A DNA stretch of 64,000 nucleotides from an uncultured beta proteobacterium (lineage in GTDB: Bacteria; Pseudomonadota; Gammaproteobacteria; Burkholderiales; SG8-39), in assembly GCA_903928055.1 (NCBI GenBank), contig CAIYPG010000118.1:84097-148096 (forward strand), in the 5' to 3' direction. The position numbers and the translations under genes are program-made. Shown here piece after piece: positions 3,772-60,350 of the stretch; position 1 is the first letter of the stretch; each line of letters starts with the position of its first letter. The notes beneath the pieces are model-generated. The model searched no databases and was not told where the DNA came from. It worked only from the letters and a program-made list of their open reading frames with translations.

Positions 3772-4528
3772 TGGCGGTAAGACGCCTGCCCCAGACACAG
3801 CCGGTGTCGATTCCAAGCAGCCCGGGGGAAATCTTGAGGCCCATTGCAGACCAGTGACCGCATACGATGACGTCATCCTTGGTCTTGCGGGCAGGCACAT
3901 CAAACCAAGGGATAAACCCAGCCGGCGCCACGTCCACTTCGCCCTTGGTCGCAAATTCCATAACGCCATCGGTACTGCAAAACCGCATCCTGGTCATCGC
4001 ATTCACGATCACCCGCCAGCGATCAGCACCCCGCAGATCATCAGACCAGTGATCCGGTTTGCTGCCATACAACCGGGAGAGAAACTCCCGATACCGCGAA
4101 CCACCCAGTTCCTCCTCCACCTCGGCGGCGAGCCGAGCCGCCATGCAGGTGGTCCATTGCGGCAACAGCCCGGCGTGCACCAAAACACGGTTTTCTTCGC
4201 GGTATAGCATTGGAAGGCCGCGTAGCCACGAAAGCAGTTCTCTGCAATCCGGGGCCGACAATACGGCATTCAGGGTGTCGTCGTTGTGCTGACTGGCAAA
4301 TCCCTCAGCAACCGCCAGCAAATGCAGGTCATGGTTGCCCAAAACCACAACAGCACTTTCACCCAGATCTTTCACATATCGCAGGACTTCAAGCGACTGA
4401 GGTCCGCGGTTGACCAGATCTCCCACAAACCACAGGCGGTCTGCTCCGGGTTTGAATTCGATTTTGGCGACCAGTTGTAGCAGTTCATCAAAGCAGCCTT
4501 GAACGTCGCCGATTGCGTAAGTTGCCAT
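3701..4528 (-). CDS. apaH: Symmetrical bis(5'-nucleosyl)-tetraphosphatase
   Basis: MATYAIGDVQGCFDELLQL.. is nearly identical in pattern to the E. coli ApaH N-terminus MATYLIGDVHGC. Metallophosphatase motifs GDLVNRGP, GNHDLHLL and VHAG are present. I chose the ATG at 4528 over the ORF-track TTG at 4558. Confidence 0.9.
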   Translation of the reverse strand: MATYAIGDVQGCFDELLQLVAKIEFKPGADRLWFVGDLVNRGPQSLEVLRYVKDLGESAVVVLGNHDLHLLAVAEGFASQHNDDTLNAVLSAPDCRELLSWLRGLPMLYREENRVLVHAGLLPQWTTCMAARLAAEVEEELGGSRYREFLSRLYGSKPDHWSDDLRGADRWRVIVNAMTRMRFCSTDGVMEFATKGEVDVAPAGFIPWFDVPARKTKDDVIVCGHWSAMGLKISPGLLGIDTGCVWGRRLTAIRLEDRRLFQVGCRPASGPALRQ

Positions 4529-4626
4529 TGGGAACCAAAAAATAAGCTTCTTGAGCAAAAGCTAAGTTTAGTAGCCGTCGCGGAATAACAGGCCACGATT
4601 GAAAATCTGTTACTGCAAGATATCAA

Positions 4627-4657
4627 AAATAAAGCCGGGGAACCCAGCTTTATTTTC
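4627..4657 (-). terminator. A/T-flanked hairpin, candidate (bidirectional) terminator downstream of the repeat-protein gene
   Basis: aaataaagc / gctttattt form a stem around the loop cggggaaccca, followed on the minus strand by a T-run (rc of aaaaa at 4625-4629). Confidence 0.4.
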
Positions 4658-4753
4658 GACATCGACATATGTGCTGTTCAGCTATTCCCTAGTATTTCAG
4701 AAAATCAACCTAAAACATTTCGGCAGCTAATTTCCCCGAATAAAGTAATTTGA

Positions 4754-5452
4754 TCACGCCAAAGGTTTTTGTTCGATTGCAGCACTACACCACGCAGCAT
4801 TCTCGTCTTTAATGGTGGCACTGCACCAGGCTGCACCTTTCTCTTTGACAATTGCAGCCTTTCTTTCAATTGAAGCGCTGCACCACGCAGCTTTCTTGCC
4901 TTCGATAGCCGCGCTGCACCAAGCTGTACTTTTATCCTCAATGGCCGCACTACACCAGGCTGCCGTCTTCGTTTCAATCGTAGCGCTACACCACGCAGCT
5001 TTCTTACCTTCAACGGCAGCACTACACCAAGCCACACTATTGGCTGTCCGCTTCTCAAATACCTCTTGATAAAGCCTGCGCGTATTTTCCATTAGTGTCG
5101 CTTGCTTTTCGCGATCCGCCTGCGTACGAATACCGATATGAGGACTATGGTGCAAGTACCCCCCGAACAGACGCTGGCAATCTTCATGATATTTCCGGGT
5201 ATGCATAATGTGCTGGTGCCAGAATTCGTCGGCGTCTTTGCTTATTACGATCCGTTCTGCCTGCTCGGGATACTTCAAGAGCATGACCAAGAATTCTCTA
5301 TATTCACATTCAGCGCTGCCCACCCGTTCCGTAGTCCACCCCGCGCCCAACTCTGGGTCCATTATCTTCAATTTAATTGATTCAAGATCAAGCTTCTGGA
5401 TGAGTTCTATCACCTGATCTACGGATTCTGTTACAAAATTTCCTTGCATCAT
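4754..5452 (-). CDS. DUF1399/GRDP-like domain protein with 7 tandem AAWCSA 12-residue repeats
   Basis: 232 aa with a GGAG SD 5 nt upstream of the ATG. The N-terminal ~130 aa carry DADEFWHQHIMHTRKYHEDCQRLFGGYL, which matches the remembered GRDP-like signature (D-x-E-W-x-WH-x-H..Y..DC...[FY]G). The C-terminal ~95 aa are repeats of AAWCSA[AT]IExKx. Confidence 0.7.
   Translation of the reverse strand: MMQGNFVTESVDQVIELIQKLDLESIKLKIMDPELGAGWTTERVGSAECEYREFLVMLLKYPEQAERIVISKDADEFWHQHIMHTRKYHEDCQRLFGGYLHHSPHIGIRTQADREKQATLMENTRRLYQEVFEKRTANSVAWCSAAVEGKKAAWCSATIETKTAAWCSAAIEDKSTAWCSAAIEGKKAAWCSASIERKAAIVKEKGAAWCSATIKDENAAWCSAAIEQKPLA
4757..5035 (-). repeat. In-frame 36-nt tandem coding repeat (7 units, one 57-nt unit)
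   Basis: TGG codons start at 5029, 4993, 4957, 4921, 4885, 4828 and 4792, giving a 36-nt period apart from one 57-nt step. The units differ at synonymous positions (TGT/TGC, AGT/AGC, GCN). Confidence 0.9.
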
Positions 5453-5476
5453 GTTCTCCAGTCTGAGGTTGCATTC

Positions 5477-5497
5477 AAAAAAATGCCGTCTTACGGC
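5477..5497 (-). terminator. Small intrinsic terminator after the CHASE-GGDEF-EAL gene
   Basis: On the minus strand, gccgt-aag-acggc is followed by attttttt, about 45 nt after the stop at 5543. Confidence 0.4.
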
Positions 5498-5542
5498 TTG
5501 TTGATGACATAAGCGGCATTGGGCACAAATTCACGGGGCTGA

Positions 5543-8500
5543 TTAGACTGATCCTCGTGACTTGATTACTGAGAGATGAGGTTTTGGAGTGTGATTCTTC
5601 AAAAATTTCACCAATTCATCTGCAGCCAGCGGCTTGCTGAAATAAAACCCCTGGAATTCATCACAATCATTCGCCGACAGAAAATCAGACTGTTCAGCAG
5701 TCTCAACTCCTTCGGCAACGACCTTCATACGAAGACTATGCGCAAGCGCAATAATTCCCCGGGTAAGCGCCATATCGTCCACTTCCTTGGGAATGTCTGT
5801 AATGAATGTCCGATCGATCTTCACGCAGTCGATCGGAAAACGCTTCAGGTAGGCAAGCGACGAGTACCCCGTGCCAAAATCGTCCAGCGAGAGATAACTT
5901 CCGATTGCCTTCAGATCACCAAGCAACCGAACGGCATGCTCGGGATTTTGGATAACCATGCTTTCGGTAATTTCAAACTCCAAGTCTTCGGCACGGACTC
6001 CCGAAGCGCTGATGATCCTCGTGATATCCGAAAGAAACTTGTCGTTGGCGAATTGGCGAGCTGACAGATTGATTGCAATCCGCGGTGCCGGCAAGCCCAT
6101 TTGTTGCCAAGCACGGCACTGCTGGCAAGCGGTGGTCAACACCCATTCGCCGATTGGAACAATCAAACCGGTTTCCTCCGCCAGCGGAATGAATTGCACC
6201 GGAGAAACAATGCCGAGGTCCGGATGCTGCCAGCGAATTAGCGCTTCGACACCTGTGATCCGTCCCGTGCGCATGTCCACCTTGGGCTGGTAGTGCAGCA
6301 ACAGTTGGTCCCTCTCAATCGCATGACGCAGACTGGATTCGAGCGCAACGCGCTCGAACGTGTGCTTGTTCATCTCCGCAGAGTAAAAATGATAGATATT
6401 TCCGCCCTGTCCCTTCGCGCGATACATCGCTGCGTCGGCATTCTGCAGCAGCGTTTCGACATCAGCGCCATCCTCGGGGAAAACACTGATACCAATGCTG
6501 GCCGATAGCTGAAATTCCTGATGGTCAACGATAAATGGCTTCGCCAAACTGGCAAGGATCTTCTGGGCGACCGGGATGGCATCACGTGGTTGGGCCATGT
6601 TCTCCAAGGTAACCACGAATTCATCTCCGCCAAGACGCGAGATGCCATCACTGTCACGCAGCGCAGCAGTGAGACGAATGGCGCATTCCTGCAGTACCCG
6701 ATCACCCGCGTTATGTCCCAGGGTATCGTTGACGATCTTGAAACGGTCTATATCCACAAACAACAGGGAAAGCCCGCGGTTGTGACGCGAGGACTGACTT
6801 AGTGCATGGCCCAGTCGCTCGCTGAAGAAATTTCGATTCGACAACTCCGTCAGCGGATCATGACCTGCCAGGTGGCGCAACGCCTGCTCGGCATGGTTAC
6901 GCTGGCAATATTGCCCGAGATAGCTGCTGATCGACTGAAGCAGATGTAGAAAGGTTTCATCGGGCTGCGGCAATTCCCGGCTAAATATCTCAATCACACC
7001 GAAGAATTGGGTAGCAGACATGATTGGAAAGGCAATTGCAGAATGCAATTTGGCCTCCGATGCCGCAGGCATGCGACTGAAGCTTTGTTCTGCAACCAGG
7101 TCCTGAACAAAAAGGGGTTTTCGCTCGAACCAGACCCGCCCCGGCACATCAACGTTTGAAGGAGTCGATAATTTTTCCGTCAACGTCAGAAACGCCTTCA
7201 GCTTGGGAGTGCCTATTCCCCAAGTCGCGGCACACCTCAAGAGGTTGCTCTCCTTGTCCAGTGTCCAATAAGTTCCGCATTCAGCCGCGAAGCCCTTGAC
7301 CATTGCCTGAATGATCTCGGGCATTGCTTTGGTCAGGTCATTGGCGGAGGCGGCCAGCTGGGTAACTCTGTGCTCAACCTCCAGCCGCATCGCTGAAAGT
7401 TTCTTCTCCGTTATATCCTTGCTCGTGCCAGACAGAAGGGCTGTACCAGCATGCAAAGTAGGCCTAGCGACCGTACGTACCCATCGAAGAATACCGTCGC
7501 TCCAGAAGATCCTGTGATCAAGCTCGCAGTCCTGCTTGTTCTCCATGGACTGGCGGAGTGCTTCCTCAAAAGTGCGGCGGTCCTTCTCATGAACACGTTG
7601 CAGGAAATCAGAATAGGAGAACGTTGGGGCTTCAGAGGAAAGCCCGAAGATGCGTTGCGTCTCTGCCGACAGAGACATGCTTCCCGTATCCGGATTCAAC
7701 AACCAGTTTCCGAATTGCGCAATGTGTTGGGCATTTGCAAGATCAGCTTCGCGTTCCTGCAATTCCTTAGCAATGGTTCCTGCAATTCTCAAAGCCCGCA
7801 TGCGCGAAGAAGACAGCGCGTAAAACATGCCAAACAATAAAACACTGCATAAAAGTCCGACTGACAATACCAACCAAGGTAGGGTGGCATCTACACGATC
7901 GATAATGGCGCTCTTTCTGGCAGCGAACCGAACTTCCCAGAGTCGGCCGCCCACCTCAGTCTGCAAGGCCCTCGTAAAAAACTCTCGATCCGCGGAATTG
8001 ACGGGTGATGCATCGTAGGAATCTGTTGAGAAGAGCAGGCGCCTTTCGCTGCTCGTGGAAGCCGGCTCCGCAAACGCAGGCCCAATGTCCGTCAGCCAGA
8101 CTTGCATATATTTCGCTACCGTACTGTCGAACAAGCCCTGCATCAGATTTTCAACATTAAAACCTGCGCCAACCGAACCTAAGTACGCAGCCCTTCTCTC
8201 TGGAACGGTGGATACAGGGGCACCATTTCTATAGACGGCCAGCCTCATAGCCAACCCTACAAATTCTCTACCGCTTTTAATTCGAATACGCTGCCCAGAT
8301 GCAGTCACTTGTCCGGAGTCGCGCGCTGAGAATTGCAATGCCTCAAGAGCTTTCGGGCCTACCGACGCAAATGGGCTTGCACCGAGATCAAGCCCGAATG
8401 CAAATTTGTTGGACTCCATTGGCTCCAGGTAAACAATGACATGATATTCGGGCCGCTCTCCGGGAGGCTTGATCGCAAAGTCTGGGTAACCTTCAGAATT

Positions 8501-8908
8501 TAAACTGGTATCCCTGCGTACCGTATCTTCGAAAATTTTCCTGTTTTTCGCTGAAACATAAGTGGCAAAGTTAATCACTTCAAACCCGGGATATCTGCGC
8601 TTCAGATCAAGAGATTCGAAAAGGCGGCGAAATTCAACCCGGTTTAGCTCCTTGCTAGATACAAAAGCTCCCCTGACGCTATACAGGACATCGGTATAAG
8701 AATGAATCCTTGATTCCATGACATGCTTTGCGTCACTCGCATAGCGATCGAATCTCAACCCGGCGGCGCGCTCTATGTCGCCTCGGATTACCTCGAAGAC
8801 GAGAAATGAAAGCAGGACGCCGGTCACCAAAGCAATCCAAGGCGCCAATGTTTTCCCGATAGACGGCAAGCCGCTCTTATCAGAAAACAGCTTTGTGATC
8901 AGATGCAT
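5543..8908 (-). CDS. CHASE-PAS-GAF-GGDEF-EAL sensory c-di-GMP turnover protein
   Basis: 1121 aa. Two TM helices flank a ~300-aa periplasmic CHASE-like domain, followed by PAS and GAF regions. The GGDEF domain has RLGGDEF with an RDSD (RxxD) I-site 5 residues upstream. The EAL domain has EALIRW, DDFGTGYSSL and AEGVET. Confidence 0.9.
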   Translation of the reverse strand: MHLITKLFSDKSGLPSIGKTLAPWIALVTGVLLSFLVFEVIRGDIERAAGLRFDRYASDAKHVMESRIHSYTDVLYSVRGAFVSSKELNRVEFRRLFESLDLKRRYPGFEVINFATYVSAKNRKIFEDTVRRDTSLNSEGYPDFAIKPPGERPEYHVIVYLEPMESNKFAFGLDLGASPFASVGPKALEALQFSARDSGQVTASGQRIRIKSGREFVGLAMRLAVYRNGAPVSTVPERRAAYLGSVGAGFNVENLMQGLFDSTVAKYMQVWLTDIGPAFAEPASTSSERRLLFSTDSYDASPVNSADREFFTRALQTEVGGRLWEVRFAARKSAIIDRVDATLPWLVLSVGLLCSVLLFGMFYALSSSRMRALRIAGTIAKELQEREADLANAQHIAQFGNWLLNPDTGSMSLSAETQRIFGLSSEAPTFSYSDFLQRVHEKDRRTFEEALRQSMENKQDCELDHRIFWSDGILRWVRTVARPTLHAGTALLSGTSKDITEKKLSAMRLEVEHRVTQLAASANDLTKAMPEIIQAMVKGFAAECGTYWTLDKESNLLRCAATWGIGTPKLKAFLTLTEKLSTPSNVDVPGRVWFERKPLFVQDLVAEQSFSRMPAASEAKLHSAIAFPIMSATQFFGVIEIFSRELPQPDETFLHLLQSISSYLGQYCQRNHAEQALRHLAGHDPLTELSNRNFFSERLGHALSQSSRHNRGLSLLFVDIDRFKIVNDTLGHNAGDRVLQECAIRLTAALRDSDGISRLGGDEFVVTLENMAQPRDAIPVAQKILASLAKPFIVDHQEFQLSASIGISVFPEDGADVETLLQNADAAMYRAKGQGGNIYHFYSAEMNKHTFERVALESSLRHAIERDQLLLHYQPKVDMRTGRITGVEALIRWQHPDLGIVSPVQFIPLAEETGLIVPIGEWVLTTACQQCRAWQQMGLPAPRIAINLSARQFANDKFLSDITRIISASGVRAEDLEFEITESMVIQNPEHAVRLLGDLKAIGSYLSLDDFGTGYSSLAYLKRFPIDCVKIDRTFITDIPKEVDDMALTRGIIALAHSLRMKVVAEGVETAEQSDFLSANDCDEFQGFYFSKPLAADELVKFLKNHTPKPHLSVIKSRGSV

Positions 8909-19184: not shown

Positions 19185-19454
19185 ATGAAGCTCATGCCCT
19201 GTCCCGTAAACGGTCTGCGCCCGGTGAGCGAGTTCTTCTATTGGGGCGAGGTGCGTCCCATGCCCGATCCGGATCGTTGTGACGATGCCGCATGGGCAGA
19301 CTATGTGTTCAACCGCAACGGCGCGCCCGGCATCAAGAAGGAATGGTGGTACCACACGCCCAGCGGCACCTGGTTCATCGCCGAGCGCGACACGATCCGG
19401 GACGAAGTGCTGCGCACCTGGCTGCACGCATCACCGGAAGCGGAACAGCAATGA
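19185..19454 (+). CDS. mgdB: Sarcosine oxidase delta-like subunit
   Basis: 89 aa, MKLMPCPVNGLRPVSEFFYWGE..., matching the SoxD family pattern. Confidence 0.85.
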   Translation: MKLMPCPVNGLRPVSEFFYWGEVRPMPDPDRCDDAAWADYVFNRNGAPGIKKEWWYHTPSGTWFIAERDTIRDEVLRTWLHASPEAEQQ

Positions 19455-22357
19455 GCCGCCTGCCGCCCGTTTCCGGTGAATGGATACAACGTGACCGGAC
19501 CCTGGCTTTCACGTTTGAAGGCCGCCGCTATGCGGGCTTTCCCGGTGACACGATCACCAGCGCGCTGCTGGCCAGCGGCATCGATGTGCTGGGACGGAGT
19601 TTCAAATATCACCGCCCCCGCTCAGTCCTGTCCTTTGCAAACCACGATGCCAACATAATCGTGCAGCGGGGAACGACGCCCAACGTTCGTGCAGACATCA
19701 CCCCGCTCACCGATGGCATGGCACTCACGCCGGTAAACGTGCATGGCAGTCTGGCCCGAGACAAGGGCCGGCTGCTCGATCACCTGTCGCGATTCCTACC
19801 CGTCGGTTTCTACTACAAGGCGTTCCACACAAAACAATTATTCCCAAAATGGGAATCATTGATCCGATTCATAGGTGGTCTCGGAATAATTGATATCAAG
19901 GCTGAACGCCTAACCACCGCCAAGCGCTACGATTTCTGCGACGTGCTGGTGGTGGGCGCGGGTGCTTCCGGGTTGTCCGCTGCACTGGCTGCCGCAGAAG
20001 CCGGGGCCAGTGTCGTTGTCGTCGATGAAAATGCCCAGGCTGGCGGAAGCGCTGCCTATGGCCTGGCAGGCCAGCCCGCCGGTGACGCGTGGCAATCCCT
20101 GCGCGCACGCGCCGCGGCACATGCCTCGATCCAGATCCGGACAGCCACGACGGCAGCCGGCTACTACGCCGACCACTGGATTCCGCTGGTCGACGACGAA
20201 CGCATCACCAAGCTGCGTGCACGCGCCGTCATCATCTCCACCGGCGCCTACGAACAGCCTGCGGTGTTCCGCAACAATGACCTGCCCGGGGTGATGCTGG
20301 GCTCGGCCGCCCGGCGCCTGATCCATCGTTACGCAGTCAAGCCGTTCAATCGCGTCGTGGTGCTTGCCGCCAATGAAGACGGCTATCGTGCCGCGCTGGA
20401 TTTCCTCGCACATGGCATTGAAGTGGCGGCGCTTGTGGACCTCCGCGCCACTGCATTGCCCACTGAAAACACCCGGAAACTCGCCGCTTGCGGCATTCCC
20501 ATCCATACCGGTCATTGCATCCATGAAGCCAATGGCCTGGATCGCGTCAGCAGCATCGTCGCGGTCCCCTTTGATGATGGCTACACCGACCCCGGCCGTG
20601 CAATTCACATCGATTGCGACGGTGTCGCCATGAGCGTGGGTTGGGCACCAGCCGCTGCCCTGCTGTATCAGGCCGGCGCCGGCATGCGTTTTGACGAAGC
20701 CGTCGGTCAATTCGTGCCCGACCACCTGCCAAGCGGAATCTTTGCCGCCGGCCGGGTCAATGGCATCCACGGCATCGACAGAAAAATGGCCGATGGCGCG
20801 CATGCCGGCTTGGCCGCAGCCATGCACCTGGGTCTGGTTCCGCGACGCAATCTCCCAGCCGTTCCGCCGGAGACCACGTGCCACTCACACCCCTGGCCGG
20901 TTTTTGCCCACCCGCAGGGCAAGAACTTCGTCGATTTCGACGAAGACCTGCAGTTGAAGGATTTCGAAAACGCGGTGCAGGAAGGTTTCGACAACATCGA
21001 ACTCATGAAGCGCTACACCACGGCGGGCATGGGCCCGTCACAGGGCAAGCACTCCAGCATGAACGCCGTCCGCATCCTCGCCCGCCTGCGCGGCGAGCCG
21101 ATTGATGCCATCGGCACAACAACCTCGCGGCCGTTTTTTCATCCGGTGCCGCTGTCGCATCTGGCAGGGCGGGGCTTTGTTGCCGAGCGCGAAACGCCAT
21201 TGCATGGCCGCCACGTTGCAGCCGGCGCCGTGCTGATGCCGGCGGGCAACTGGCAGCGTCCCGAGTATTACGCCATCCGGGGACGGACCCGCGAGCAGGC
21301 AATATGCGGCGAAGCACTTGCCGTGCGCAAGGGCGCGGGCCTGATCGACGTCGGCACACTGGGCAAGATCGAAATCAGCGGACCGGATGCCGGTGCATTC
21401 CTTGAGCGTATCTACACCGGGCGCTTTGCAAACATGCGCCCCGGGACGACGCGATATGGCGTCATGCTGGACGAAGCAGCAGTCATCGTTGATGACGGCG
21501 TGGTGGCACGCCTCGATGAAGGCCGCTACTACTTCACCACCACGACTTCCGGCTCGGCCACGGTCTATCGCGAACTCGGCCGCCTGAACACGCTGTGGCG
21601 CATGAACTGCGGCATCGTCAATGTCACCGGACACAAGGCCGCACTGAACCTGGCCGGCCCGAATTCACGCAAATTGCTGCAGAGCCTGACGCATTCCGAT
21701 CTCAGCGAAGCGGCATTTCCCTACCTCGCCGCGCGCGAATTCGAGGTTGCCGGCATTGCGGCGCGCGTGCTGCGCATCGGCTTTGTCGGCGAGCTCGGCT
21801 ACGAAATCCATGTCCCTGCCGATCAGGGGGCGGTACTGTGGGATGCGCTGATGACTATCGGCAAATCCTTTGGCCTGCGACCATTCGGTGTCGAGGCACA
21901 GCGCCTGCTCCGCCTGGAGAAAGGCCACATCATCGTCAGCCAGGACACCGACGGCCTGACCACCCCGGACGAAGCTGCGGTCAGCTGGGCGGTGAAAATG
22001 GACAAGCCCTTTTTTGTCGGCCAGCGCAGCCTTGCCATCATCCGCAAGCAACCGCGCAGGCAGCAACTGGCGGGTTTCGAGCTGGAAGGTCCAGGCGCGG
22101 AAGGCGTGCGCGAATGCCATCTGATCATCACTGACGGCATTATTGCCGGCCGCGTGACCAGCGTGGCATGGAGTCCAACCCTGAACAAATACATCGGCCT
22201 GGCAATGCTTGCCACATCGCTTACGGCACAGGGCACGCCGTTCTGGATCCGGGCGAGTGGTGGCAGGATGGTCGCGGCACGCGTGGTACCGACGCCGTTT
22301 TACGACGCGGGCGGATTGCGACAAAAGCCGGTTCAGGCCATGGCGGAGGCGGCATGA
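19451..22357 (+). CDS. mgdC: Sarcosine oxidase alpha-like subunit (FAD/NAD and aminomethyltransferase-like folate domain)
   Basis: Starts MSRLPPVSGEWIQRDRTLAFTFEGRRYAGFPGDTITSALLASG, a 2Fe-2S-like N-terminus. It also has CDVLVVGAGASGLSAALAAA and a C-terminal GcvT-like domain. Its ATG overlaps the mgdB stop (ATGA at 19451-19454). The ORF-track start at 19292 lies inside mgdB. Confidence 0.85.
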   Translation: MSRLPPVSGEWIQRDRTLAFTFEGRRYAGFPGDTITSALLASGIDVLGRSFKYHRPRSVLSFANHDANIIVQRGTTPNVRADITPLTDGMALTPVNVHGSLARDKGRLLDHLSRFLPVGFYYKAFHTKQLFPKWESLIRFIGGLGIIDIKAERLTTAKRYDFCDVLVVGAGASGLSAALAAAEAGASVVVVDENAQAGGSAAYGLAGQPAGDAWQSLRARAAAHASIQIRTATTAAGYYADHWIPLVDDERITKLRARAVIISTGAYEQPAVFRNNDLPGVMLGSAARRLIHRYAVKPFNRVVVLAANEDGYRAALDFLAHGIEVAALVDLRATALPTENTRKLAACGIPIHTGHCIHEANGLDRVSSIVAVPFDDGYTDPGRAIHIDCDGVAMSVGWAPAAALLYQAGAGMRFDEAVGQFVPDHLPSGIFAAGRVNGIHGIDRKMADGAHAGLAAAMHLGLVPRRNLPAVPPETTCHSHPWPVFAHPQGKNFVDFDEDLQLKDFENAVQEGFDNIELMKRYTTAGMGPSQGKHSSMNAVRILARLRGEPIDAIGTTTSRPFFHPVPLSHLAGRGFVAERETPLHGRHVAAGAVLMPAGNWQRPEYYAIRGRTREQAICGEALAVRKGAGLIDVGTLGKIEISGPDAGAFLERIYTGRFANMRPGTTRYGVMLDEAAVIVDDGVVARLDEGRYYFTTTTSGSATVYRELGRLNTLWRMNCGIVNVTGHKAALNLAGPNSRKLLQSLTHSDLSEAAFPYLAAREFEVAGIAARVLRIGFVGELGYEIHVPADQGAVLWDALMTIGKSFGLRPFGVEAQRLLRLEKGHIIVSQDTDGLTTPDEAAVSWAVKMDKPFFVGQRSLAIIRKQPRRQQLAGFELEGPGAEGVRECHLIITDGIIAGRVTSVAWSPTLNKYIGLAMLATSLTAQGTPFWIRASGGRMVAARVVPTPFYDAGGLRQKPVQAMAEAA

Positions 22358-23049
22358 GGGCCAGCGCACTGCATGACCTTCATCTCGCCCGGGTGCCGGA
22401 TGGGGCAGGCTGGATTGCGGCTGCCGGCATGCCAATGCCTGCAGCATTTCCGAACGAAGGCGATCCAGCCACCCTGGCGCTGGCCGATGCATCGCACTGG
22501 CAGCGTGCCGGCGTGAAAGGTCCGGGTGCTGCTGCATTCCTTGAAGCGCTCGGATTGCCGGTGCCGGCGCAACCGAATCGCTGGACACCACTGCCGCGTG
22601 GCGGCCTGATCGCGCGGCTGGGGCTGACGGAATTCTTCATCGAGGATGCCGGTGCCATAGCCCGCCTGATCGCGAATGCACCCGCAACAATCGGCGTGTA
22701 TCCGGTACCCCGCGCCGACACCGCGCTGGTACTGACGGGGCGCGACGCAAACGAAGTATTGCTGCAAACCTGCAATATCAACTTCAAAGCTTTAGAACGG
22801 ATGGCAGGACAGCTTGCACTCACCTCCATGGCTGGCGTGGGGGTGTTGATCATTCCCCAACACGCCAAAAGCGGCGCCGACGACATACCGCTTTATCGCA
22901 TCTGGTGCGACCCGAGTTACGGGCCGTACCTTTATCGCACCCTGCTGGGCATCGTGGAAGAACTGGGCGGCGGACCCGTTGGAATGACGGGCCTTGACCA
23001 CCTGGCGCCATCGCCCTCCGACAACATCCAACCCACGGGGAATCCATGA
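22354..23049 (+). CDS. mgdD: Sarcosine oxidase gamma-like subunit
   Basis: 231 aa starting [11 protein letters not shown]. Its ATG overlaps the mgdC stop (ATGA at 22354-22357). Position and size fit SoxG/MgdD, but sequence conservation in this family is weak. Confidence 0.7.
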
Positions 23050-24380
23050 CTCCAGCCGCCGCAAAAAAATACCTTGCCGACCACAAGCTGAAATACATCC
23101 TGGCCCAATTCGTCGACATCCACGGCGCGGCCAAGGCCAAGGCCGTCCCGGCCAGACACCTCGACATGGTGCTGAACGACGGCGCCGGGTTCGCCGGGTT
23201 CGCGGTCTGGGGCCTGGGGATGGGACCCCACGGCCCCGACTACATGGCCCGGGGCGATGCCACGACGCTTTCCGCCATCCCCTGGATGCCGGGCTATGCG
23301 CGCATGGCCTGCGACGGCTACGTGCACGGCAAACCCTACGAATACTGCTCGCGGGTCGTTCTCAAACGGCAGCTCGCCGCATTAAAGAAACGCGGCCTGA
23401 CGATGTACACCGGCATCGAACCCGAGTTCATGCTGCTGGCGCGCAAGGCCGACGGCGGCCTTGCGCCGGCGGACGACACCGACACGCTGGAAAAACCCTG
23501 CTACGACTACAAGGGCCTGGCGCGCTCGGCGGCCTTCCTGGAGAAACTGACCGAATCCCTGGTCGATGTCGGCATCGACGTCTACCAGATCGATCACGAA
23601 GACGCGAACGGCCAGTTCGAGGTGAATTTCACCTACGCCGATGCCCTGAAGACCGCCGACAACTTCGTGTTCTTCAAGATGGCAGCCTCCGAGATTGCAC
23701 GCAGCATGGGCCTGATCGCCACGCTCATGCCCAAGCCGTTTTCCAACCGCACCGGCACCGGCGCCCATTTCCACATTTCCATGGGCGACGCGAAATCGAA
23801 GAACATCTTTTACGACGCCAAGGACAAGAACGGCCTCGCGCTGTCGAAGACGGCCTACCACTTCCTCGCCGGGGTGCTGGCGCATGCGCGCGCACTGACC
23901 GCCATCGTTGCGCCCTCGATCAACTCCTACAAGCGCCTCGTTGTCGGTCGCGCGCTGTCCGGCGCAACCTGGGCACCGGCCTACATCACCTACGGTGACA
24001 ACAACCGCACCGCCTGCATCCGCATCCCCGGCGGGCGGCTGGAACTGCGACTGCCCGACGGTTCGTGCAATCCCTACCTTGCCACCGCGGCCATCCTCGC
24101 TGCCGGCATGGACGGCATTGACCGCAAACTCGATCCGGGCAAACCAGTCAGCGACAACCTGTACGAGTGGTCTCCGGAAAAACTCAAGAAGTCCGGCATC
24201 CAGCTCCTGCCGCAGAACCTCGCCGAAGCACTGGATGCATTTGAAGCGGACAAGGTATTGCGCGGCGCACTTGGCGAAGCGCTGTCGGCCGAATTCCTGA
24301 GCCTCAAGCGCATGGAGTGGATCGAATACTCGCGCCATGTTTCCGATTGGGAAACGTCGCGCTACCTGGAGTTCTTCTGA
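23046..24380 (+). CDS. gmaS: Glutamine-synthetase-like gamma-glutamylmethylamide synthetase
   Basis: 444 aa with a GS catalytic domain ([52 protein letters not shown]). It is embedded between mgd and mgs genes as in known NMG clusters. Its ATG overlaps the mgdD stop. Confidence 0.85.
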
Positions 24381-25279
24381 TGTGCGGCATTGTCGGACTG
24401 CTGATCAAGAAGCCGGGGATGCGCAGCCAGCTTGGCGCATGGATGCTGCCCATGCTGGTCGGCATGACCGAACGCGGCCCGGATTCGGCCGGCATGGCCG
24501 TGTTCACCGAACCGCTGGGCGGCGACCGGCGCAAGTACAGCCTTTATTCAGGTACCGGCACGTTCGAATGGGGCGCCCTATGTCGTGCCGCCACCACCGG
24601 CCTGGGCGCGGACAGTACGCTGAGCGTCAAGGCCAACCACGCCATACTCGAGACATCGGCGGATCCCGCCAAGGTACGCACATGGATAAAGGCGGCCTTT
24701 CCGGCGCTGCATGTGTTATCGGCGGGACGCGCCATTGACCTGTACAAGGACACCGGACGCCCCGCGGAAGTGGCCGAGCGCTACGATTTCAAGAAGCTGT
24801 CGGGCACCCATCTTGTCGGGCACACACGCATGGCCACCGAGTCTGCGGTCACCCCGGCGCATGCCCACCCGTTCACCGCCGGCGAGGATTTCTGCCTGGT
24901 GCACAACGGGTCACTGTCCAACCCCTACTCGATACGTCGCAAGCTCGAACCGCTGGGCATTGCCTTTGACACCGACAATGATACTGAGGCGGCCTGCCGC
25001 TTTCTGGAGTGGCGCATGCGTGAAGGCGATTCACTGGAGGCGGCGCTGCAAAGCGGCTTTGACGAGCTGGATGGCTTCTACACCTTCCTGATGGGCACCG
25101 GAAATGAACTGGCGCTGGTGCGCGACGCCTTTGCCTGCAAACCCGCAGTCATTGCCGAGACCGATGAATACGTCGCCATCTCCTCCGAGTTCCGCTCGCT
25201 GGCCAAACTGCCCGACATCAGGAACGCAAAGATCTTCGAACCCAAGCCAGAGGAGATGTACGTATGGCGAGCCTCATGA
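24380..25279 (+). CDS. mgsA: N-methylglutamate synthase subunit A (class-II glutamine amidotransferase)
   Basis: Starts MCGIVGLL, the Ntn-type catalytic Cys2, and overlaps the gmaS stop in TGATG. The ORF-track start at 24317 lies inside gmaS. Confidence 0.85.
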   Translation: MCGIVGLLIKKPGMRSQLGAWMLPMLVGMTERGPDSAGMAVFTEPLGGDRRKYSLYSGTGTFEWGALCRAATTGLGADSTLSVKANHAILETSADPAKVRTWIKAAFPALHVLSAGRAIDLYKDTGRPAEVAERYDFKKLSGTHLVGHTRMATESAVTPAHAHPFTAGEDFCLVHNGSLSNPYSIRRKLEPLGIAFDTDNDTEAACRFLEWRMREGDSLEAALQSGFDELDGFYTFLMGTGNELALVRDAFACKPAVIAETDEYVAISSEFRSLAKLPDIRNAKIFEPKPEEMYVWRAS

Positions 25280-25983
25280 ACGCAATGGTCGACACCCCCG
25301 CCATCGGGGCCACGTTTGACCTTGCCACTCAGCCCCTGCGCGAGTTGAACCGATTCCTGCATCGCGACCTTGCCGGCACAAGGGCCGTGCGCGTGCTCAA
25401 TCCGGACGGCGCCCACAACATCGCGGTCGGGGTCGATGCGCCGGTGGATGTCGACATCGACGGACATGCCGGCTATTACGCCGGCGGAATGAACAAGCAG
25501 GCGCACATCACCATCCACGGCAACACCGGGCCGGGGGTGGGTGAGGGCATGTCCTCCGGCGCCATCCACGTCAAGGGCTTCGCATCGGTTGCCGCCGGCG
25601 CCTCTGCGCATGGCGGCCTGCTGGTCATCGACGGCGACGCCTCACTGCGCTGCGGGATTTCGATGAAGGGCATCGACATTGTCGTCGGCGGCTCGGTCGG
25701 CGATTACTCCGCTTTCATGGCACAAGCGGGCACGCTGGTGATCTGCGGCGATGCCGGCGACGGCCTCGGTGACTCATTGTACGAAGCGGTGATCTACGTG
25801 CGCGGCAGCGTCAAATCTTTCGGTGCGGACGCCCATGAAGAGCCCATGAGCGAAGCGGATATTGCCGCTCTCGGCGCATTGCTGAAGGCCGCCGGCATGT
25901 CGCATGACCCGAAAACCTTTCGCCGCGTCGCCTCGATGCGCGGCCTGTATCACTGGAACGCCGACGCCAATCAGGAATACTGA
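25276..25983 (+). CDS. mgsB: N-methylglutamate synthase subunit B (GXGXG-motif, GltB C-terminal-like domain)
   Basis: Repeated GxGxG beta-helix pattern (GHAGYYAGGMN, IHGNTGPGVGEGM, VKGFASVAAGASAHGG, VVGGSVGDY, ICGDAGDGLGDS). The ATG at 25276 overlaps the mgsA stop (ATGA); ATG 25264 is an alternative start. Confidence 0.8.
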   Translation: MNAMVDTPAIGATFDLATQPLRELNRFLHRDLAGTRAVRVLNPDGAHNIAVGVDAPVDVDIDGHAGYYAGGMNKQAHITIHGNTGPGVGEGMSSGAIHVKGFASVAAGASAHGGLLVIDGDASLRCGISMKGIDIVVGGSVGDYSAFMAQAGTLVICGDAGDGLGDSLYEAVIYVRGSVKSFGADAHEEPMSEADIAALGALLKAAGMSHDPKTFRRVASMRGLYHWNADANQEY

Positions 25984-26013
25984 CCAAGCGTACTGAACAG
26001 GAAACATCCCAAC

Positions 26014-27369
26014 ATGAACAAACCCGTCGAATTCCACAAGTGCATGCAGCTCGAAGAGAGCTGGGGCTACGATCGCAAGACGCTTGACTACATCCACAAT
26101 GCATCGGCCCACGGCCTGTATGAAATCCGCGGCCTGGGTGCCAAGCGCCGGGTGCCGCATTTCGACGACCTGGTTTTTCTCGGTGCCTCGCTGTCGCGCT
26201 ATGCGCTGGAAGGCTATCGTGAGCGCTGCGACACCAGGACCGTGCTCGGCACGCGCTTCGCCTCCAAACCAATCGAGCTGGCCATCCCCATCACGATCGC
26301 CGGCATGAGCTTCGGCGCGCTCTCGGCCAACGTGAAGGAAGCACTGGGACGCGCCGCGACCGACATGGGCACCTCGACCACCACCGGCGATGGCGGCATG
26401 ACCCGGGAGGAACGGCAGTCCTCGAAGACGCTGATCTACCAGTGCCTGCCCTCGCGCTACGGGTTCAATCCGGACGATGTGCGTCGCGCCGACGCGATTG
26501 AAGTGGTCATCGGCCAGGGCGCCAAACCGGGCGGTGGCGGCATGCTGCTCGGCCAGAAGGTCAATCCGCGCGTGGCGAAGATGCGCACCCTTCCTGAAGG
26601 CGTGGACCAGCGCTCGGCCTGCCGCCATCCTGACTGGACCGGGCCCGATGACCTCACGATCAAGATCCAGGAACTGCGCGAAATCACCGACTGGGAGAAA
26701 CCCATCTACGTGAAGGTCGGCGCCACGCGCACGCTGCATGACGTGAAGCTCGCCGTGCACGCCGGCGCCGATGTCATCGTGGTCGACGGCATGCAGGGCG
26801 GCACGGCCGCGACGCAGACCGTGTTCATCGAGCATGTGGGCATTCCCACGCTCGCCGCCGTGCGCCAGGCGGTGCAGGCGCTGGAAGAACTCAACATGAA
26901 GGACACCGTGCAACTCATCGTGTCCGGCGGCATACGCACCGGCGCCGATGTGGCCAAGGCGCTGGCCATGGGCGCGGATGCGGTGGCGATCGGGCAGGGC
27001 GTGCTGATGGCGCTGGGCTGCAACCATGACAGTTACTTCCAGAACGGCGCGCAGCATTCCGCAGTCGAGGATTACGCGGCGCTCGGCACCGCGCCCGGCT
27101 ACTGCCACCACTGCCACACCGGCAAATGTCCGGTGGGCGTCACCACGCAGGACGCCGTCCTGGAGCAGCGACTCGATCCTGCAGTCGGCGCCCGGCATGT
27201 GCGCAACTACCTCAAGACTCTGAACATGGAGCTCACCACGATCGCGCGGGCCTGCGGCAAGCAGGATGTGCATCACCTGGAACGCGAGGATCTCGTGGCG
27301 CTGACAGTGGAGGCCGCAGCCATGGCGGGACAGCCGCTGGCCGGCACGGATTGGGTGCCCGGACGCTGA
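26014..27369 (+). CDS. mgsC: N-methylglutamate synthase subunit C (FMN-binding glutamate-synthase-family protein)
   Basis: 451 aa with a GltB FMN-domain pattern: PITIAGMSFGALS, VIGQGAKPGGGG, DVIVVDGMQGGTAA and SGGIRTGADVAKALAMGADAV. Confidence 0.85.
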   Translation: MNKPVEFHKCMQLEESWGYDRKTLDYIHNASAHGLYEIRGLGAKRRVPHFDDLVFLGASLSRYALEGYRERCDTRTVLGTRFASKPIELAIPITIAGMSFGALSANVKEALGRAATDMGTSTTTGDGGMTREERQSSKTLIYQCLPSRYGFNPDDVRRADAIEVVIGQGAKPGGGGMLLGQKVNPRVAKMRTLPEGVDQRSACRHPDWTGPDDLTIKIQELREITDWEKPIYVKVGATRTLHDVKLAVHAGADVIVVDGMQGGTAATQTVFIEHVGIPTLAAVRQAVQALEELNMKDTVQLIVSGGIRTGADVAKALAMGADAVAIGQGVLMALGCNHDSYFQNGAQHSAVEDYAALGTAPGYCHHCHTGKCPVGVTTQDAVLEQRLDPAVGARHVRNYLKTLNMELTTIARACGKQDVHHLEREDLVALTVEAAAMAGQPLAGTDWVPGR

Positions 27370-33246: not shown

Positions 33247-33262
33247 ACGGCACAGGTAATTG

Positions 33263-36982
<3,720 letters not shown>

Positions 36983-37070
36983 GCCGCTGCGGCAGGCCCC
37001 GGGTCTGCCGCAGCGGCATTCTTGCCAACAACAACTCACCACCCGCCACGGCGGAGAACCTTCCTGACCC

Positions 37071-37544
37071 ATGACCATCGCCTACGACATCAAGCTGCTG
37101 AAGGACATCACCCTGTTTCCCGTGATCGTCCGTGAAAACATGCGCTTTCGCGACACCGACGGCAACGGCCACGTCAACAATGCCGTGTACGCCACCTACC
37201 TCGAACTGGCGCGCGGCCGCACCCGTCGCCAGCTGCTCTCCGCGCGGCCGGCGGGCACGGCCTCGGTGGTTGGCAAGCAGCTCATCAACTACCTGCGCGA
37301 ACTGCATTACCCGGGCGTGCTGGACATCGGCACAGCCATCGTTCACGTCACGCGCAGCACCTGGACCTGGGGTCACGGCGTGTTCAAGGACGGCGTGTGC
37401 TACGCCACCGGCGAAGTGACGATGGTGATGATCGACAAAAGCGCCCGGAAAGCCGGGGAAATCCCCAAAGAGTTCCGTGATAGTCTGGAAAAACTGAGAC
37501 TGAAAAAAACCGAATCCCCCATCATCATCACTTCGGACGTGTAA
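37071..37544 (+). CDS. Acyl-CoA thioesterase (hotdog fold, 4HBT/YbgC-like)
   Basis: The pattern VIVRENMRFRDTDGNGHVNNAVYATYLELAR is typical of YbgC/4HBT thioesterases. Confidence 0.8.
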   Translation: MTIAYDIKLLKDITLFPVIVRENMRFRDTDGNGHVNNAVYATYLELARGRTRRQLLSARPAGTASVVGKQLINYLRELHYPGVLDIGTAIVHVTRSTWTWGHGVFKDGVCYATGEVTMVMIDKSARKAGEIPKEFRDSLEKLRLKKTESPIIITSDV

Positions 37545-54928: not shown

Positions 54929-57370
<2,442 letters not shown>

Positions 57371-58480
57371 CTAGATTCTCATCGGCATGACGACGTACTT
57401 GAAATCGTTCTTGTCCGGAACGGTGATCAATGCGCTGGAGTTCGCATCACCCAGTCCGCACAGCACTTCGTTGACATCAAGGTGGTTCAGAACGTCCAGC
57501 AAGTAGCCCACGTTGAATCCGATGTCGAGCGTCTCCCCCTTGTAATCAACATCAATCTCTTCCTGAGCCTCTTCCTGCTCGGTATTAGAACAGGTCACTT
57601 TCAAAGTTCCATCGGACAGTACCCAACGCACTCCGCGAAACTTATCGCTCGTCAGAATCGCAGTTCTTTGTAGGGCCTGCAGCAACGTGACACGGTTCAG
57701 CCGCAGCAATTTTGGCTGATTCTGCGGGATTACCCTGGAATAATCCGGGAATTTTCCATCGATGAGCTTGGACACCAGCAGAACTTCGCCAAAGGAAAAT
57801 CGCACCTGGCTTCCTGACACTTCGACGGCAATGGAATCATCCGAATCGGAGAGGAGTTTGGATAACTCGAGTATTGTCTTCCGCGGAAGAATGACTTCCT
57901 GCTTCGGAAGATCCTTGGCATCCAGCTCACGACTGGCAAAAGCCAGCCGGTGGCCATCCGTCGCAATCAGGCTGAGGCTGCCTTTTTCCACGACCATCAA
58001 AAGGCCGTTGAGGTAGTAGCGGATGTCCTGCTGCGCCATGGCGTATTGCACCAGGCCAATCAGCGAACGCAACAGCTTTTGCGGGACGGTAAAGCGGGTT
58101 GCGTTGCCTTCTGCAGCTGCCAGCCTGGGAAAATCCTCCGGAGCCAGTGTTTGCAGGTTGAAGCGACTTTTTCCGGACTTCACCTGCATGCGTTTTTCCT
58201 GCAATGCTACGGAGACCTCCGAGCCTTCGGGCAATGCACGCAGGATATCCAGCAGCTTTCGCGCCCCAACTGTCGTCGTTTTGGATTCACCTTGTCCGCT
58301 TACTGCAGTAGAAGCGCTTATCTCAATCTCAATGTCCGTTGCCACGAACTCTATTCTGTCCCCGGAACGAGCCAAGAGAACATTGGAAAGAATTGGCAGC
58401 GTGTGCCGTCTTTCGATGATCCCCGAAACTGCCTGCAGGGGTTTAAGCAGGGTTTCTCGGTTGATCTTGAATAGATTCAT
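57371..58480 (-). CDS. dnaN: DNA polymerase III beta sliding clamp
   Basis: 369 aa, MNLFKINRETLLKPLQAVSGIIERRHTLPILSNVLL..., ending VVMPMRI. Confidence 0.97.
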   Translation of the reverse strand: MNLFKINRETLLKPLQAVSGIIERRHTLPILSNVLLARSGDRIEFVATDIEIEISASTAVSGQGESKTTTVGARKLLDILRALPEGSEVSVALQEKRMQVKSGKSRFNLQTLAPEDFPRLAAAEGNATRFTVPQKLLRSLIGLVQYAMAQQDIRYYLNGLLMVVEKGSLSLIATDGHRLAFASRELDAKDLPKQEVILPRKTILELSKLLSDSDDSIAVEVSGSQVRFSFGEVLLVSKLIDGKFPDYSRVIPQNQPKLLRLNRVTLLQALQRTAILTSDKFRGVRWVLSDGTLKVTCSNTEQEEAQEEIDVDYKGETLDIGFNVGYLLDVLNHLDVNEVLCGLGDANSSALITVPDKNDFKYVVMPMRI

Positions 58481-58572
58481 TTATATTCCTTAGTAATAGT
58501 AATAAGGAGACGTTAATTCAGGGATAACTGCTGCAGACTTAGCAGGCACGCGGTTCTTGCCTGTTGAAAAAC

Positions 58573-58581
58573 TGTGGACAA
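58573..58581 (-). promoter_or_regulatory. DnaA-box variant in the dnaA-dnaN spacer
   Basis: The plus strand reads tgtggacaa, which is TTGTCCACA on the minus strand, one mismatch from TTATCCACA. Confidence 0.4.
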
Positions 58582-58679
58582 GCCTGGGGATACTGCGTGG
58601 GTGAATTCTGGATGGATTTTCAGCCCCGGAAGAGAACGGGGTCTTACTACAACTTGTCCCCAGGTTTCCAGACACTTGT

Positions 58680-60041
58680 TCATCCCTTCAACACCTGTTC
58701 AAGCACGTGATAGTCGCGGTTGATGTCATGGTCTTTCTCGCGCAGCGCGGCAATGGTGCGGCATGCATGCAAGACTGTCGTATGATCGCGGCCGCCAAAC
58801 GCATCACCAATTTCCGGAAGGCTCATTTGCGTGAGGTCCTTGGCAAGAGCCATGGCCATTTGTCTTGGGCGGGCAATGTTCCGCGCGCGCTTTTGTGCCA
58901 ACAGGTCGGAAACTTTCAGTTTGTAGTAGTCGGCGACAGTCTTCTGGATATTTTCAACCGTAATCTGCCGGTTCTTGGCCATCAGCAAATCCTTCAGCGC
59001 CTCTTTCGCCGTGTCCAGGGTGATTTCCTTGCCACTGAAGCGCGCGAAGGCAATGACGCTCTTCAGGGCGCCCTCCAGTTCGCGAACGTTGGAGCGGATA
59101 TGCTTGGCAATGAAGAAAGCCACGTTCTCATCCAGCTTGAAGGAAACAGCCTCCGCCTTTTTCAGGATGATGGCGACGCGCATTTCTTGTTCCGGCGGCT
59201 CGATCGCAACCGTCAGCCCCCACGAGAACCGCGATTTCAGGCGCTCATCCAGTCCTGAAAGATCTTTCGGGTACGTGTCGCAGGTGATGATGACCTGCTT
59301 GTGCGCTTCGATCAGAGCATTGAAAGCGTAGAAGAATTCTTCCTGCGTCCGGTCTTTTCCGGTGAAGAACTGTATGTCGTCGATCAAAAGCAGGTCTAGA
59401 GAATGATAGTAACGTTTGAAATCATCAAACGATTTCTGCTGGTAGGCACGAACGACATCGGACACATAATCGGAAGCGTGCAGATAGCGCACACGGGCCG
59501 CCGGATGCTGGGTCAATACAAAGTTGCCGATTGCGTGGATCAAATGGGTTTTGCCGAGGCCTACGCCACCGTAAACAAACAACGGGTTGTATGAGGTTCC
59601 TGGATGCTCAGCCACCTGCAGTGCCGCGGCGCGGGCAAGTTGGTTGGCCTTGCCTGCAACAAAACTCTCGAAGGTGAAGTCCTTGATCAGGCTGGAGCGC
59701 TCAACTGTTGCGCCGCGTACAGTGCCGTTGCGGGGTGCTGCTACCTTGCCAGACTGTGGTGGTAAAGCAGGTGCTGGTGTCGCAGGGAGTGGTTCGTTTG
59801 CAGCTAGGGACAGGGAAACACGGATCGGGGATGCAAAAAAATCTGATCCCATGGCTTCAATCCGAGCCAAAAATCGCTCCTTTACCCATTGCAGGACAAA
59901 GCGATTTGGCGCGACCAGCTTGAGTTCCCCCGAAGGCGTCACATCCGAGTCCAGGCTCAGGGGCCTAATCCAGGTGTTAAACTGTTGAGCGGGAAGCTCT
60001 TTTTCGAATTGGTTCAGGCAGGACTGCCAGAAACCCAGCAT
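58680..60041 (-). CDS. dnaA: Chromosomal replication initiator protein
   Basis: 453 aa: FNTWIRPL, Walker [19 protein letters not shown], and a C-terminal DnaA signature region ([16 protein letters not shown]). Confidence 0.97.
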
Positions 60042-60104
60042 GAGATTTATAGGGCTTTTTTTAGGAGAAAATCAAGGCCGGATTCTAGCCTGTTTTTGGG
60101 TACT

Positions 60105-60113
60105 TATCCACAG
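60105..60113 (+). promoter_or_regulatory. Perfect DnaA box in the dnaA/rpmH divergent spacer
   Basis: TTATCCACA is an exact consensus match, 64 nt upstream of the dnaA ATG on the opposite strand. Confidence 0.7.
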
Positions 60114-60132
60114 GTTCCCGCAATTGGGGACA

Positions 60133-60162
60133 TTGACAAGCAACGGGGTAAAAAGGTCTAAT
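60133..60162 (+). promoter_or_regulatory. Candidate sigma-70 promoter of rpmH
   Basis: TTGACA (60133-38), an 18-nt spacer, then TCTAAT (60157-62). The AGGAAG SD lies at 60181-86. Confidence 0.4.
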
Positions 60163-60190
60163 CCCCGGTTCTTTTGCCTTAGGAAGTATC

Positions 60191-60325: not shown

Positions 60326-60350
60326 GATTGCCCCAACGTCGGGTGATCAT

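Follow-up and report, generated by a model that had tools for sequence, protein, structure and literature searches.

The window, that is the whole 64,000-nucleotide stretch of contig CAIYPG010000118.1 analysed here (uncultured beta proteobacterium, Burkholderiales), carries on its minus strand a gene for a protein with a seven-unit repeat tail and, immediately upstream on the same strand, a gene for a membrane sensor with a CHASE domain, and the pair is tentatively read as a two-gene signal/receptor module. The features of the locus, in positions of the window, are as follows (ORF, open reading frame; aa, amino acids; TM, transmembrane segment).

4754..5452, minus strand: gene for a repeat-tailed UCP032817-like (PF27765) protein, from the ORF list; stop codon at 4754-4756
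4757..5035, minus strand: seven (A/V/T)AWCSA units in array (residues 140-232), separated by linkers that are charged and variable, from unit spacing and a codon table
5054..5425, minus strand: N-terminal all-helical domain, residues ~10-133, PF27765 and distantly GRDP-like, from an AlphaFold2 model
5141..5230, minus strand: most conserved block of that domain, D75-x-FWH-x-HI(L/M)-x-T-x-KY-x-x-DC-x3-FG-x2-LHH-x-P104, from conservation over 243 sequences
5478..5497, minus strand: terminator- or attenuator-like hairpin, GCCGTAAGACGGC with a run of seven T after it, lying past the sensor stop and ahead of the ORF start, from a consensus scan
5543..8908, minus strand: partner membrane sensor of 1121 aa, TM-CHASE-TM-PAS-GAF-GGDEF-EAL, from Pfam
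8084..8650, minus strand: sensor residues 87-275, the CHASE domain, predicted from its flanking hydrophobic segments to be periplasmic

The repeat-tailed protein and its family

An earlier sequence-only reading had picked out an ORF with a seven-copy repeat at this place, and a 232-codon minus-strand ORF with AWCSA repeated seven times was indeed found there, with the neighbours that reading had named, a Metallophos (apaH-like) gene and a sensor of cyclic di-GMP (c-di-GMP) type. The product counts 232 aa from the first ATG and 231 aa from the second ATG at 5449; the spacing of a GGAG at 5459-5456 suits the second better than the first, and on the basis of this spacing and of public gene calls translation probably starts at 5449. 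The exact 231-aa product is present on nine contigs in NCBI and ENA, where it carries no name. The GC content is 0.48–0.51 at window 4001-6000, where the repeat gene and the sensor gene's 3' part lie, against 0.55–0.59 in the flanks. The consensus scan found no sigma-70-like promoter in the 90-nt gap between the two genes, and this, together with the hairpin at 5478-5497, suggests that the sensor-to-precursor expression ratio may be set by read-through or attenuation.

The seven AWCSA units lie within the C-terminal 93 residues at spacings of 12, 12, 12, 12, 19 and 12 residues, which agrees with the exact 36-nt period and single 57-nt unit described before. Tandem Repeats Finder recovered just 4.3 copies of the array at 68% DNA identity, so that the peptide is conserved far better than the DNA. 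When units were compared pairwise, the six core codons showed 60 synonymous and 11 non-synonymous differences, all 11 of them at position -1, whereas the six linker codons showed 29 synonymous and 71 non-synonymous differences; because of this contrast the peptide core is taken to be under purifying selection while the linkers vary freely, and the core changes uphold the earlier claim that the peptide, rather than a recent DNA duplication, is being conserved. A close variant from the same 90% cluster (P0044) differs solely by the in-frame loss of exactly one 12-residue unit, so copy number shifts by whole units with the motif undisturbed. The tail has an Ala content of 28% and is probably disordered, as its AlphaFold2 pLDDT (predicted local distance difference test) is about 45. 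A homology search with the tail alone returned no matches, the query itself included, composition filtering having removed the query signal.

Unit statistics were taken from one consensus per protein in 83 relatives with at least three units, and the family unit is A-[Y/F/W/M]-[S/C]-[G/A/S]-A. Position -2 is occupied by Ala (77) or Ser (6); position -1 by Tyr (36), Phe (19), Trp (18), Met (6), Leu (2), Val (1) or His (1); position 0 by Ser (43) or Cys (40); and position +1 mostly by Gly (42), Ala (17) or Ser (10). Each protein has 3–18 units at spacings of 6–35 residues, positions -3 to +1 are free of charged residues, and Lys or Arg is found in 475 of the 612 linkers; examples of unit peptides are CSAAVEGKKAAW, AAWCSAAIE and KTAYSGA. 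Across hundreds of genomes the motif persists at N-domain identities of 35–58%. Of 148 metagenome-wide representatives sampled independently, 99 had three or more units, 76 of the Cys type and 23 of the Ser type. The core is uniform inside one protein and yet differs among orthologues and among tandem paralogues of one locus (AWSG/AYSG, AYCM/AYSM, AFCG/AFSG, for example). Many Oxalobacteraceae loci hold two such tandem paralogues with different cores alongside a single CHASE kinase; tandem paralogues were recorded at L037, L039, L040, L045, L049, L053, L061, L064, L066, L072, L074, L078 and L084.

The A-W-C-S core on which the sequence-only reading had relied is thus not kept across the family, given the aromatic-site counts above and the Ser of 43 of the 83 proteins. 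That Ser and Cys are used almost equally often, with Trp in the minority, speaks against Trp-Cys crosslinks as a shared function and likewise against thiol metal or redox chemistry, both of which the sequence-only reading had raised for the window protein; family-wide conserved cysteines, as expected of a Cys-repeat metal or redox protein, are missing. The interchange at position 0 fits a hydroxyl/thiol nucleophile role. A tripeptide chromophore of the GFP/MIO type was considered and rejected, as Gly occupies position +1 in only 42 of the 83 proteins, and the sulfatase formylglycine motif, the lipobox and known C-terminal sorting signals (comparison motifs from general knowledge) do not fit either.

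The C-terminus carries a signature of its own. A conserved RPx[LVIMF] motif was observed in the last 22 residues of 60 of the 90 complete proteins (in tails of L005-L084, e.g. L024, L028, L043 and L062), usually 4–5 residues before the end and often preceded by F/Y-Y-x-x, with only 8 occurrences in the 9,154 aa elsewhere in the tails. The motif is also present in relatives with Cys-rich tails and is mostly missing from the clade of the window protein. A C-terminal Ala ends 51% of the proteins, and several finish in ...LAA, resembling ssrA/ClpX degrons. Two atypical members with units lacking an aromatic residue were seen on short contigs with no sensor visible, P0135 with TATCTE units (L086 2448-3128) adjoining a TonB-dependent receptor and P0076 with AACGA units (L085 126-941) adjoining an O-methyltransferase.

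The N-terminal domain belongs to PF27765 (UCP032817-like), and its kinship with PF07173 (GRDP-like/DUF1399) is distant. A precomputed PF27765 match is present in 41 of 42 homologues, and P0001, which is the window protein except for the first Met and one V/L change, carries a precomputed PF27765.1 match. Against PF07173 the window protein scored E = 0.002 and 19.3 bits in Pfam, below the gathering cut-off of 22.7, with the match limited to residues 47-91 (model positions 97-143); 23 of 27 homologues match PF07173 at E <= 0.01 (best 2.1e-5), and P0022 and P0025 have both families in their precomputed annotation. The domain-only AlphaFold2 model (pLDDT 87.7, predicted template-modelling score 0.81) had as its best Foldseek match a giant-virus GRDP-like model from Harvfovirus with template-modelling scores of 0.69/0.66, a root-mean-square deviation of 2.4 Å and probability 1.0. 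The DUF1399/GRDP assignment of the sequence-only reading is consequently retained as a real but distant relationship, in sequence profile and predicted fold, and not as family membership. Proteins of the GRDP-like fold are encoded by the giant viruses Harvfovirus, Gaeavirus, Terrestrivirus and Orpheovirus (BFVD matches A0A3G5A0N6, A0A3G4ZYS9, A0A3G4ZPD8 and A0A2I2L3W5), one of them fused to a ubiquitin-like domain. To our knowledge, neither PF07173 nor PF27765 has a known biochemical function.

Among 1.84 billion cluster representatives, 12,242 were matched by the domain profile with E <= 1e-3, and 481 of these with E <= 1e-30. In the PDB no sequence match to the family profile and no fold neighbour of the domain-only model was found (best E = 1.1), and NCBIfam, PADLOC and PHROGs gave no meaningful matches; beta-helix matches of the full-length model in a Foldseek search of the PDB fell on the low-confidence tail and were discarded as spurious. 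Twenty residues are at least 99% conserved in the 243 aligned sequences, nine of which are relatives with entirely different tails: W39, Y51, L55, D75, F77, W78, H79, H81, I82, L83, T85, Y88, D91, C92, F96, G97, H101, H102, P104 and G107. Since such polar conservation exceeds the need of a passive leader peptide, even with unrelated tails, it points to a candidate catalytic or ligand/metal-binding site. N-domain positions shared little mutual information with the core type (<= 0.35), and what there was lay at variable positions, probably reflecting phylogeny; the residue after HIL (H/Q/D), once suspected of tracking Cys versus Ser cores, was not among the top positions.

CHASE sensors beside the repeat genes

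The sensor encoded next to the repeat gene was assigned with high scores by Pfam (CHASE 3.8e-36, GGDEF 4e-48, EAL 4.1e-78, with PAS_3 and GAF_2 also present), the CHASE domain (PF03924) reaching 125.1 bits against a cut-off of 25. It is placed in the periplasm because it sits between hydrophobic segments at residues 23-41 and 346-364, and it aligns at E = 1.8e-9 with 6k62, a CHASE-type sensor domain of solved structure. A CHASE sensor was alongside in all four of the first homologous loci inspected. The survey was then based on one genome per species, in which at least 591 loci were found and the best 80 kept, with six-frame ORFs searched by the CHASE hidden Markov model, and neighbours were tabulated for the 71 loci carrying at least three units:

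adjacent CHASE sensor, 62 of 71
frameshifted (split) CHASE sensor within 3 kb, 1 of 71
adjacent dCache-like-HAMP-PAS-GGDEF-EAL sensor, 1 of 71
PAS-GAF-GGDEF-EAL sensor whose N-terminus is lost at the end of the contig, 2 of 71
one flank missing, 5 of 71
both flanks visible and no sensor, 0 of 71

All 65 CHASE matches across the 1.145 Mb examined are neighbours of repeat genes. The window gene had earlier been called an orphan, which these counts contradict, as the adjoining CHASE sensor is its conserved partner. The dCache-like sensor is also present in two of three two-unit loci (L030 and L032); in L030, L032 and L041, whose units are of the form S-[Y/F]-C-G-A (eight in L041, two to three in the others), it lies convergent to the repeat gene, with dCache_1 matches of E 1e-6 to 1e-8 that fall below the gathering score, and it looks like one periplasmic ligand-binding domain swapped for another. 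The nine relatives with short Cys-rich non-repeat tails (e.g. ...RCKAPKCRTQCKPMKCK; L044, L051, L054, L059, L060, L067, L073, L079 and L083) all lack a sensor neighbour. Defence-island-like neighbours occur in three of them (L073, L067 and L083: CBASS SMODS+HORMA+AAA, HNH, HEPN and XisI), with no maturases, and the Cys-rich-tail PF27765 protein is not listed in PADLOC.

The output of the sensors is less constant than their input. Histidine kinases make up 48 of the sensors and 5–7 have GGDEF-EAL outputs like that of the window; 12 of the 48 kinases adjoin a LuxR-type (LuxR/NarL-type) response regulator, in the order precursor, kinase, regulator. Gene orientation also varies (co-directional upstream or downstream, divergent, convergent), while the extracytoplasmic sensor domain and the PAS domain are kept throughout. 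Related modules were found in cultured Massilia, Duganella, Pseudoduganella, Janthinobacterium, Rugamonas, Undibacterium and Noviherbaspirillum, and the taxon labels on some contigs of soil metagenome-assembled genomes (Enterobacteriaceae, Saccharibacteria and others) are probably binning errors.

Differential rates of divergence were observed for the parts of the module, the CHASE domain diverging much faster than the cytoplasmic region of the sensor or the N-domain of the repeat protein, with identities between L037 and L040 of 0.59 for CHASE, 0.85 for the cytoplasmic region and 0.92 for the N-domain. Over 1,275 pairs of sensors, the identity of the CHASE domains, after correction for that of the cytoplasmic regions, was +0.030 where the partner cores matched and -0.006 otherwise, a difference that no permutation of the labels, out of 2000, attained; in the reciprocal control p was 0.23, which is not significant. 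Among pairs with cytoplasmic identity of at least 0.8, CHASE identity was 0.735 for the 22 that had a common core and 0.607 for the 10 whose cores differed. The CHASE domain therefore appears to covary with the core type of its partner, a signal regarded as suggestive because the sensor pairs are phylogenetically non-independent and counter-examples exist.

No third partner was recovered. Neighbour clustering with a greedy gene set over 84 related loci gave no conserved third gene family and no conserved maturase, only lineage-specific housekeeping synteny, and the 64-kb window holds no radical-SAM, YcaO, MNIO, lanthionine-synthetase (LanM), ATP-grasp or C39-ABC gene; the earlier remark that no maturase, protease or exporter is adjacent thus holds for the window and for the 84 loci alike. 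A signal peptide or hydrophobic segment is absent from 97 of the 98 repeat-family proteins, and no double-glycine leader, ABC-C39 or AgrB was found in the repeat proteins or the 84 loci.

Interpretation of the gene pair and its alternatives

Uniform cores within each protein, copy changes by whole units and differences among orthologues and paralogues make up the pattern of multi-copy signal or natural-product precursors. The favoured reading, held at a probability of about 0.38, is a two-gene signal/receptor module in which a multi-copy precursor would be self-processed by its own domain and its product sensed by the neighbouring periplasmic CHASE domain. The repeat-tailed protein would be a cytoplasmic precursor whose disordered tail carries 3–18 short neutral cores (small-Ala-aromatic/Met-Ser/Cys-small) between charged linkers; the conserved N-domain, through its His, Asp, Cys, Tyr and Thr residues, would bind or chemically process the units in cis, attacking or modifying their Ser/Cys nucleophile; and the released peptide-derived product would reach the periplasm and be recognised by the CHASE domain next door. 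The window sensor would then adjust c-di-GMP through its GGDEF-EAL output, and in most relatives the sensor would be a histidine kinase, often with a LuxR/NarL-type response regulator. That the window domain might modify its own tail is suggested only by its invariant polar residues together with the absence of other enzymes.

Several observations weigh against this reading. A route to the periplasm is not evident, as the repeat protein lacks a signal peptide and its surroundings lack an exporter or protease; sequence and fold searches of the PDB detected no known enzyme similar to the N-domain; and the covariation of this domain with core type is weak. The sole established bacterial CHASE ligand is a cytokinin and not a peptide (PMC7072313). 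The covariation at the CHASE domain is limited by the dependence among sensor pairs already noted and by cases such as L037 and L045, which have a common core and yet CHASE domains just 51% identical, and the sensors keep PAS_3 just as constantly as they do CHASE or dCache, from which it follows that the functional contact could be cytoplasmic. What the analysis establishes is the architecture, the selection on the core, the adjacency, the topology of the sensor, the missing signal peptide and the missing maturases nearby; processing in cis, export and recognition by CHASE are inferred from these.

The cytoplasmic contact is central to an alternative that we consider unlikely, in which the intact protein would be a multivalent adaptor whose tail motifs dock on the PAS/transmitter region of the sensor or on a recruited partner, clustering or tuning the sensor, and whose N-domain may serve as a small-molecule- or metal-binding input. 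It would account for the missing signal peptides and hydrophobic segments, for the predicted disorder of the tail, for the retention of PAS_3 in every sensor type, the dCache variants included, and for the lack of an exporter or protease; however, core identity shifts among close relatives and among tandem paralogues that share a sensor while the cytoplasmic part of the sensor is conserved and CHASE diverges, the covariation signal lies at CHASE and not at the cytoplasmic region, and 14–18 copies would be unusual in a docking scaffold.

A conventional precursor of a peptide made on the ribosome and modified after translation (RiPP), with the N-domain as a large leader or recognition domain, the enzymes encoded elsewhere and a sensor that regulates production without sensing the product, is rather improbable. 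Large folded leaders are known, e.g. NHLP and Nif11, the Cys-rich tails of relatives resemble core peptides, and the multi-core part of the RiPP-like proposal made in the sequence-only reading stands, as tandem conserved cores with variable linkers were found (7 units here, 3–18 in relatives). The co-localised modifying enzyme and the protease or exporter that such a system would have are not found, since none of the enzyme and transporter families searched for is conserved in the 84 loci or present in the window; the invariant His, Asp and Cys are conserved well above what a leader requires, and sensors with c-di-GMP output have no direct control of transcription. Still more doubtful is a self-contained metal, redox or cofactor protein, in which the thiols and aromatics of the tail would serve metal buffering, redox sensing or a protein-bound cofactor: the window protein has seven Cys-Trp pairs, the N-domain is His-rich and L003 has copper/MerR/DsbD genes 5–10 kb away, but such metal-related neighbours are not conserved, and with Ser for Cys in 43 of 83 proteins and Trp in 18 of 83, thiol chemistry cannot be the shared function. 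A neutral low-complexity or structural repeat with no specific role, for which the Ala-rich tail, its low pLDDT and the copy-number differences between close strains might be cited, is largely refuted and hardly credible given the strong depletion of non-synonymous changes in the core, the conservation of the motif at deep N-domain divergence and the perfect correlation of repeat possession with a sensor neighbour.

Compared with known systems, the signal/receptor module most resembles in layout the pheromone cassettes of Gram-positive bacteria (comCDE, plnABCD, agrBDCA), where the precursor gene lies beside genes for a sensor kinase and a regulator, an order seen in 12 loci here, and where a hypervariable peptide is paired with a hypervariable sensing domain next to conserved cytoplasmic parts; a precursor gene beside a sensor, with or without a response regulator, is what was found. 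The differences are that the host is a Gram-negative member of the Burkholderiales, that the sensing domain is a periplasmic CHASE domain instead of a polytopic membrane sensor, that the precursor of ~230 aa has a folded domain and 3–18 core copies, that a double-glycine leader and an AgrB-like or ABC-C39 processing gene are absent, leaving no dedicated export or processing function, and that several sensors output c-di-GMP instead of acting as kinases. Peptide-based signalling is rare in Gram-negative bacteria.

Autocatalytic fused precursors are known among plant BURP-domain peptide cyclases and among fungal and bacterial borosins, which are OphMA-type methyltransferase-core fusions (PMC11253845, PMC8429565). 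They likewise fuse a conserved folded domain to single or repeated core peptides, with no separate maturase nearby; unlike them, the domain here is N-terminal, about 125 aa long and all-helical, resembled neither BURP (four CH motifs) nor S-adenosylmethionine-dependent methyltransferases by sequence or by fold in the Pfam and PDB searches, and would be catalytic purely by inference. If it is catalytic, it would be a bacterial example of enzyme-substrate fused peptide biosynthesis. The GRDP-like/DUF1399 proteins of plants, fungi and giant viruses (PF07173) share the helical fold and the W-H-x-H...Y..DC...G..H signature, and plant members also bear low-complexity tails (PMC4299439), while the tail in the window is an A-aromatic-Ser/Cys repeat and not glycine-rich, and the family is the separate PF27765.

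The sensor shares with the CHASE receptors Arabidopsis AHK4, Xanthomonas PcrK and Azospirillum CdgD a periplasmic CHASE domain between two transmembrane helices, and CdgD has the same CHASE-PAS-GGDEF-EAL layout as the window sensor, its signal being explicitly unknown (PMC7804937). Known CHASE ligands are cytokinins, and the sensing of plant cytokinin by PcrK is the one established case among bacterial CHASE inputs, which are otherwise largely unknown (PMC7072313). The literature yielded no CHASE receptor for which a genetically linked ligand-precursor candidate had been reported, and no description of the repeat-tailed family or of the CHASE module in bacteria was found in full-text literature; a paper on a Burkholderia biofilm operon was set aside as a precedent, as it concerns CHASE2, an unrelated domain. 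The cassette proposed here is one of precursor and receptor assembled wholly from uncharacterised parts, and in hundreds of genomes, those of the culturable Massilia, Duganella, Janthinobacterium and Noviherbaspirillum among them, it provides CHASE sensors with a genetically linked candidate ligand precursor. If the proposal is right, it would supply the first functional context for a large superfamily (the 12,242 cluster representatives above, with a fold common to the plant and giant-virus GRDP proteins). The more far-reaching claim, that the GRDP/UCP032817-like domain is a new self-acting peptide maturase making autoinducers that are the first endogenous ligands of bacterial CHASE receptors, seems improbable at present; were it true, a peptide quorum- or self-sensing system would be widespread in Gram-negative Burkholderiales, and the plant, fungal and giant-virus GRDP/DUF1399 proteins would gain, by homology, a first biochemical handle.

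Other genes of the window

The window otherwise holds only housekeeping genes. A chromosomal origin region lies at 54929-62646, with gyrB, a DnaA-like gene (58680-60041) and yidC. The DnaA encoded there shares about 80% identity with DnaA from metagenome-assembled genomes of uncultured Burkholderiales/Betaproteobacteria. At 33260-37078 two large ORFs overlap on opposite strands, one of 1240 aa on the plus strand and one of 977 aa on the minus strand, the latter with no Pfam match. A cluster resembling the sarcosine-oxidase/N-methylglutamate pathway was observed at 19292-27369, with GS-like, GATase, GXGXG and glutamate-synthase-domain genes, and it suggests the use of methylated amines.

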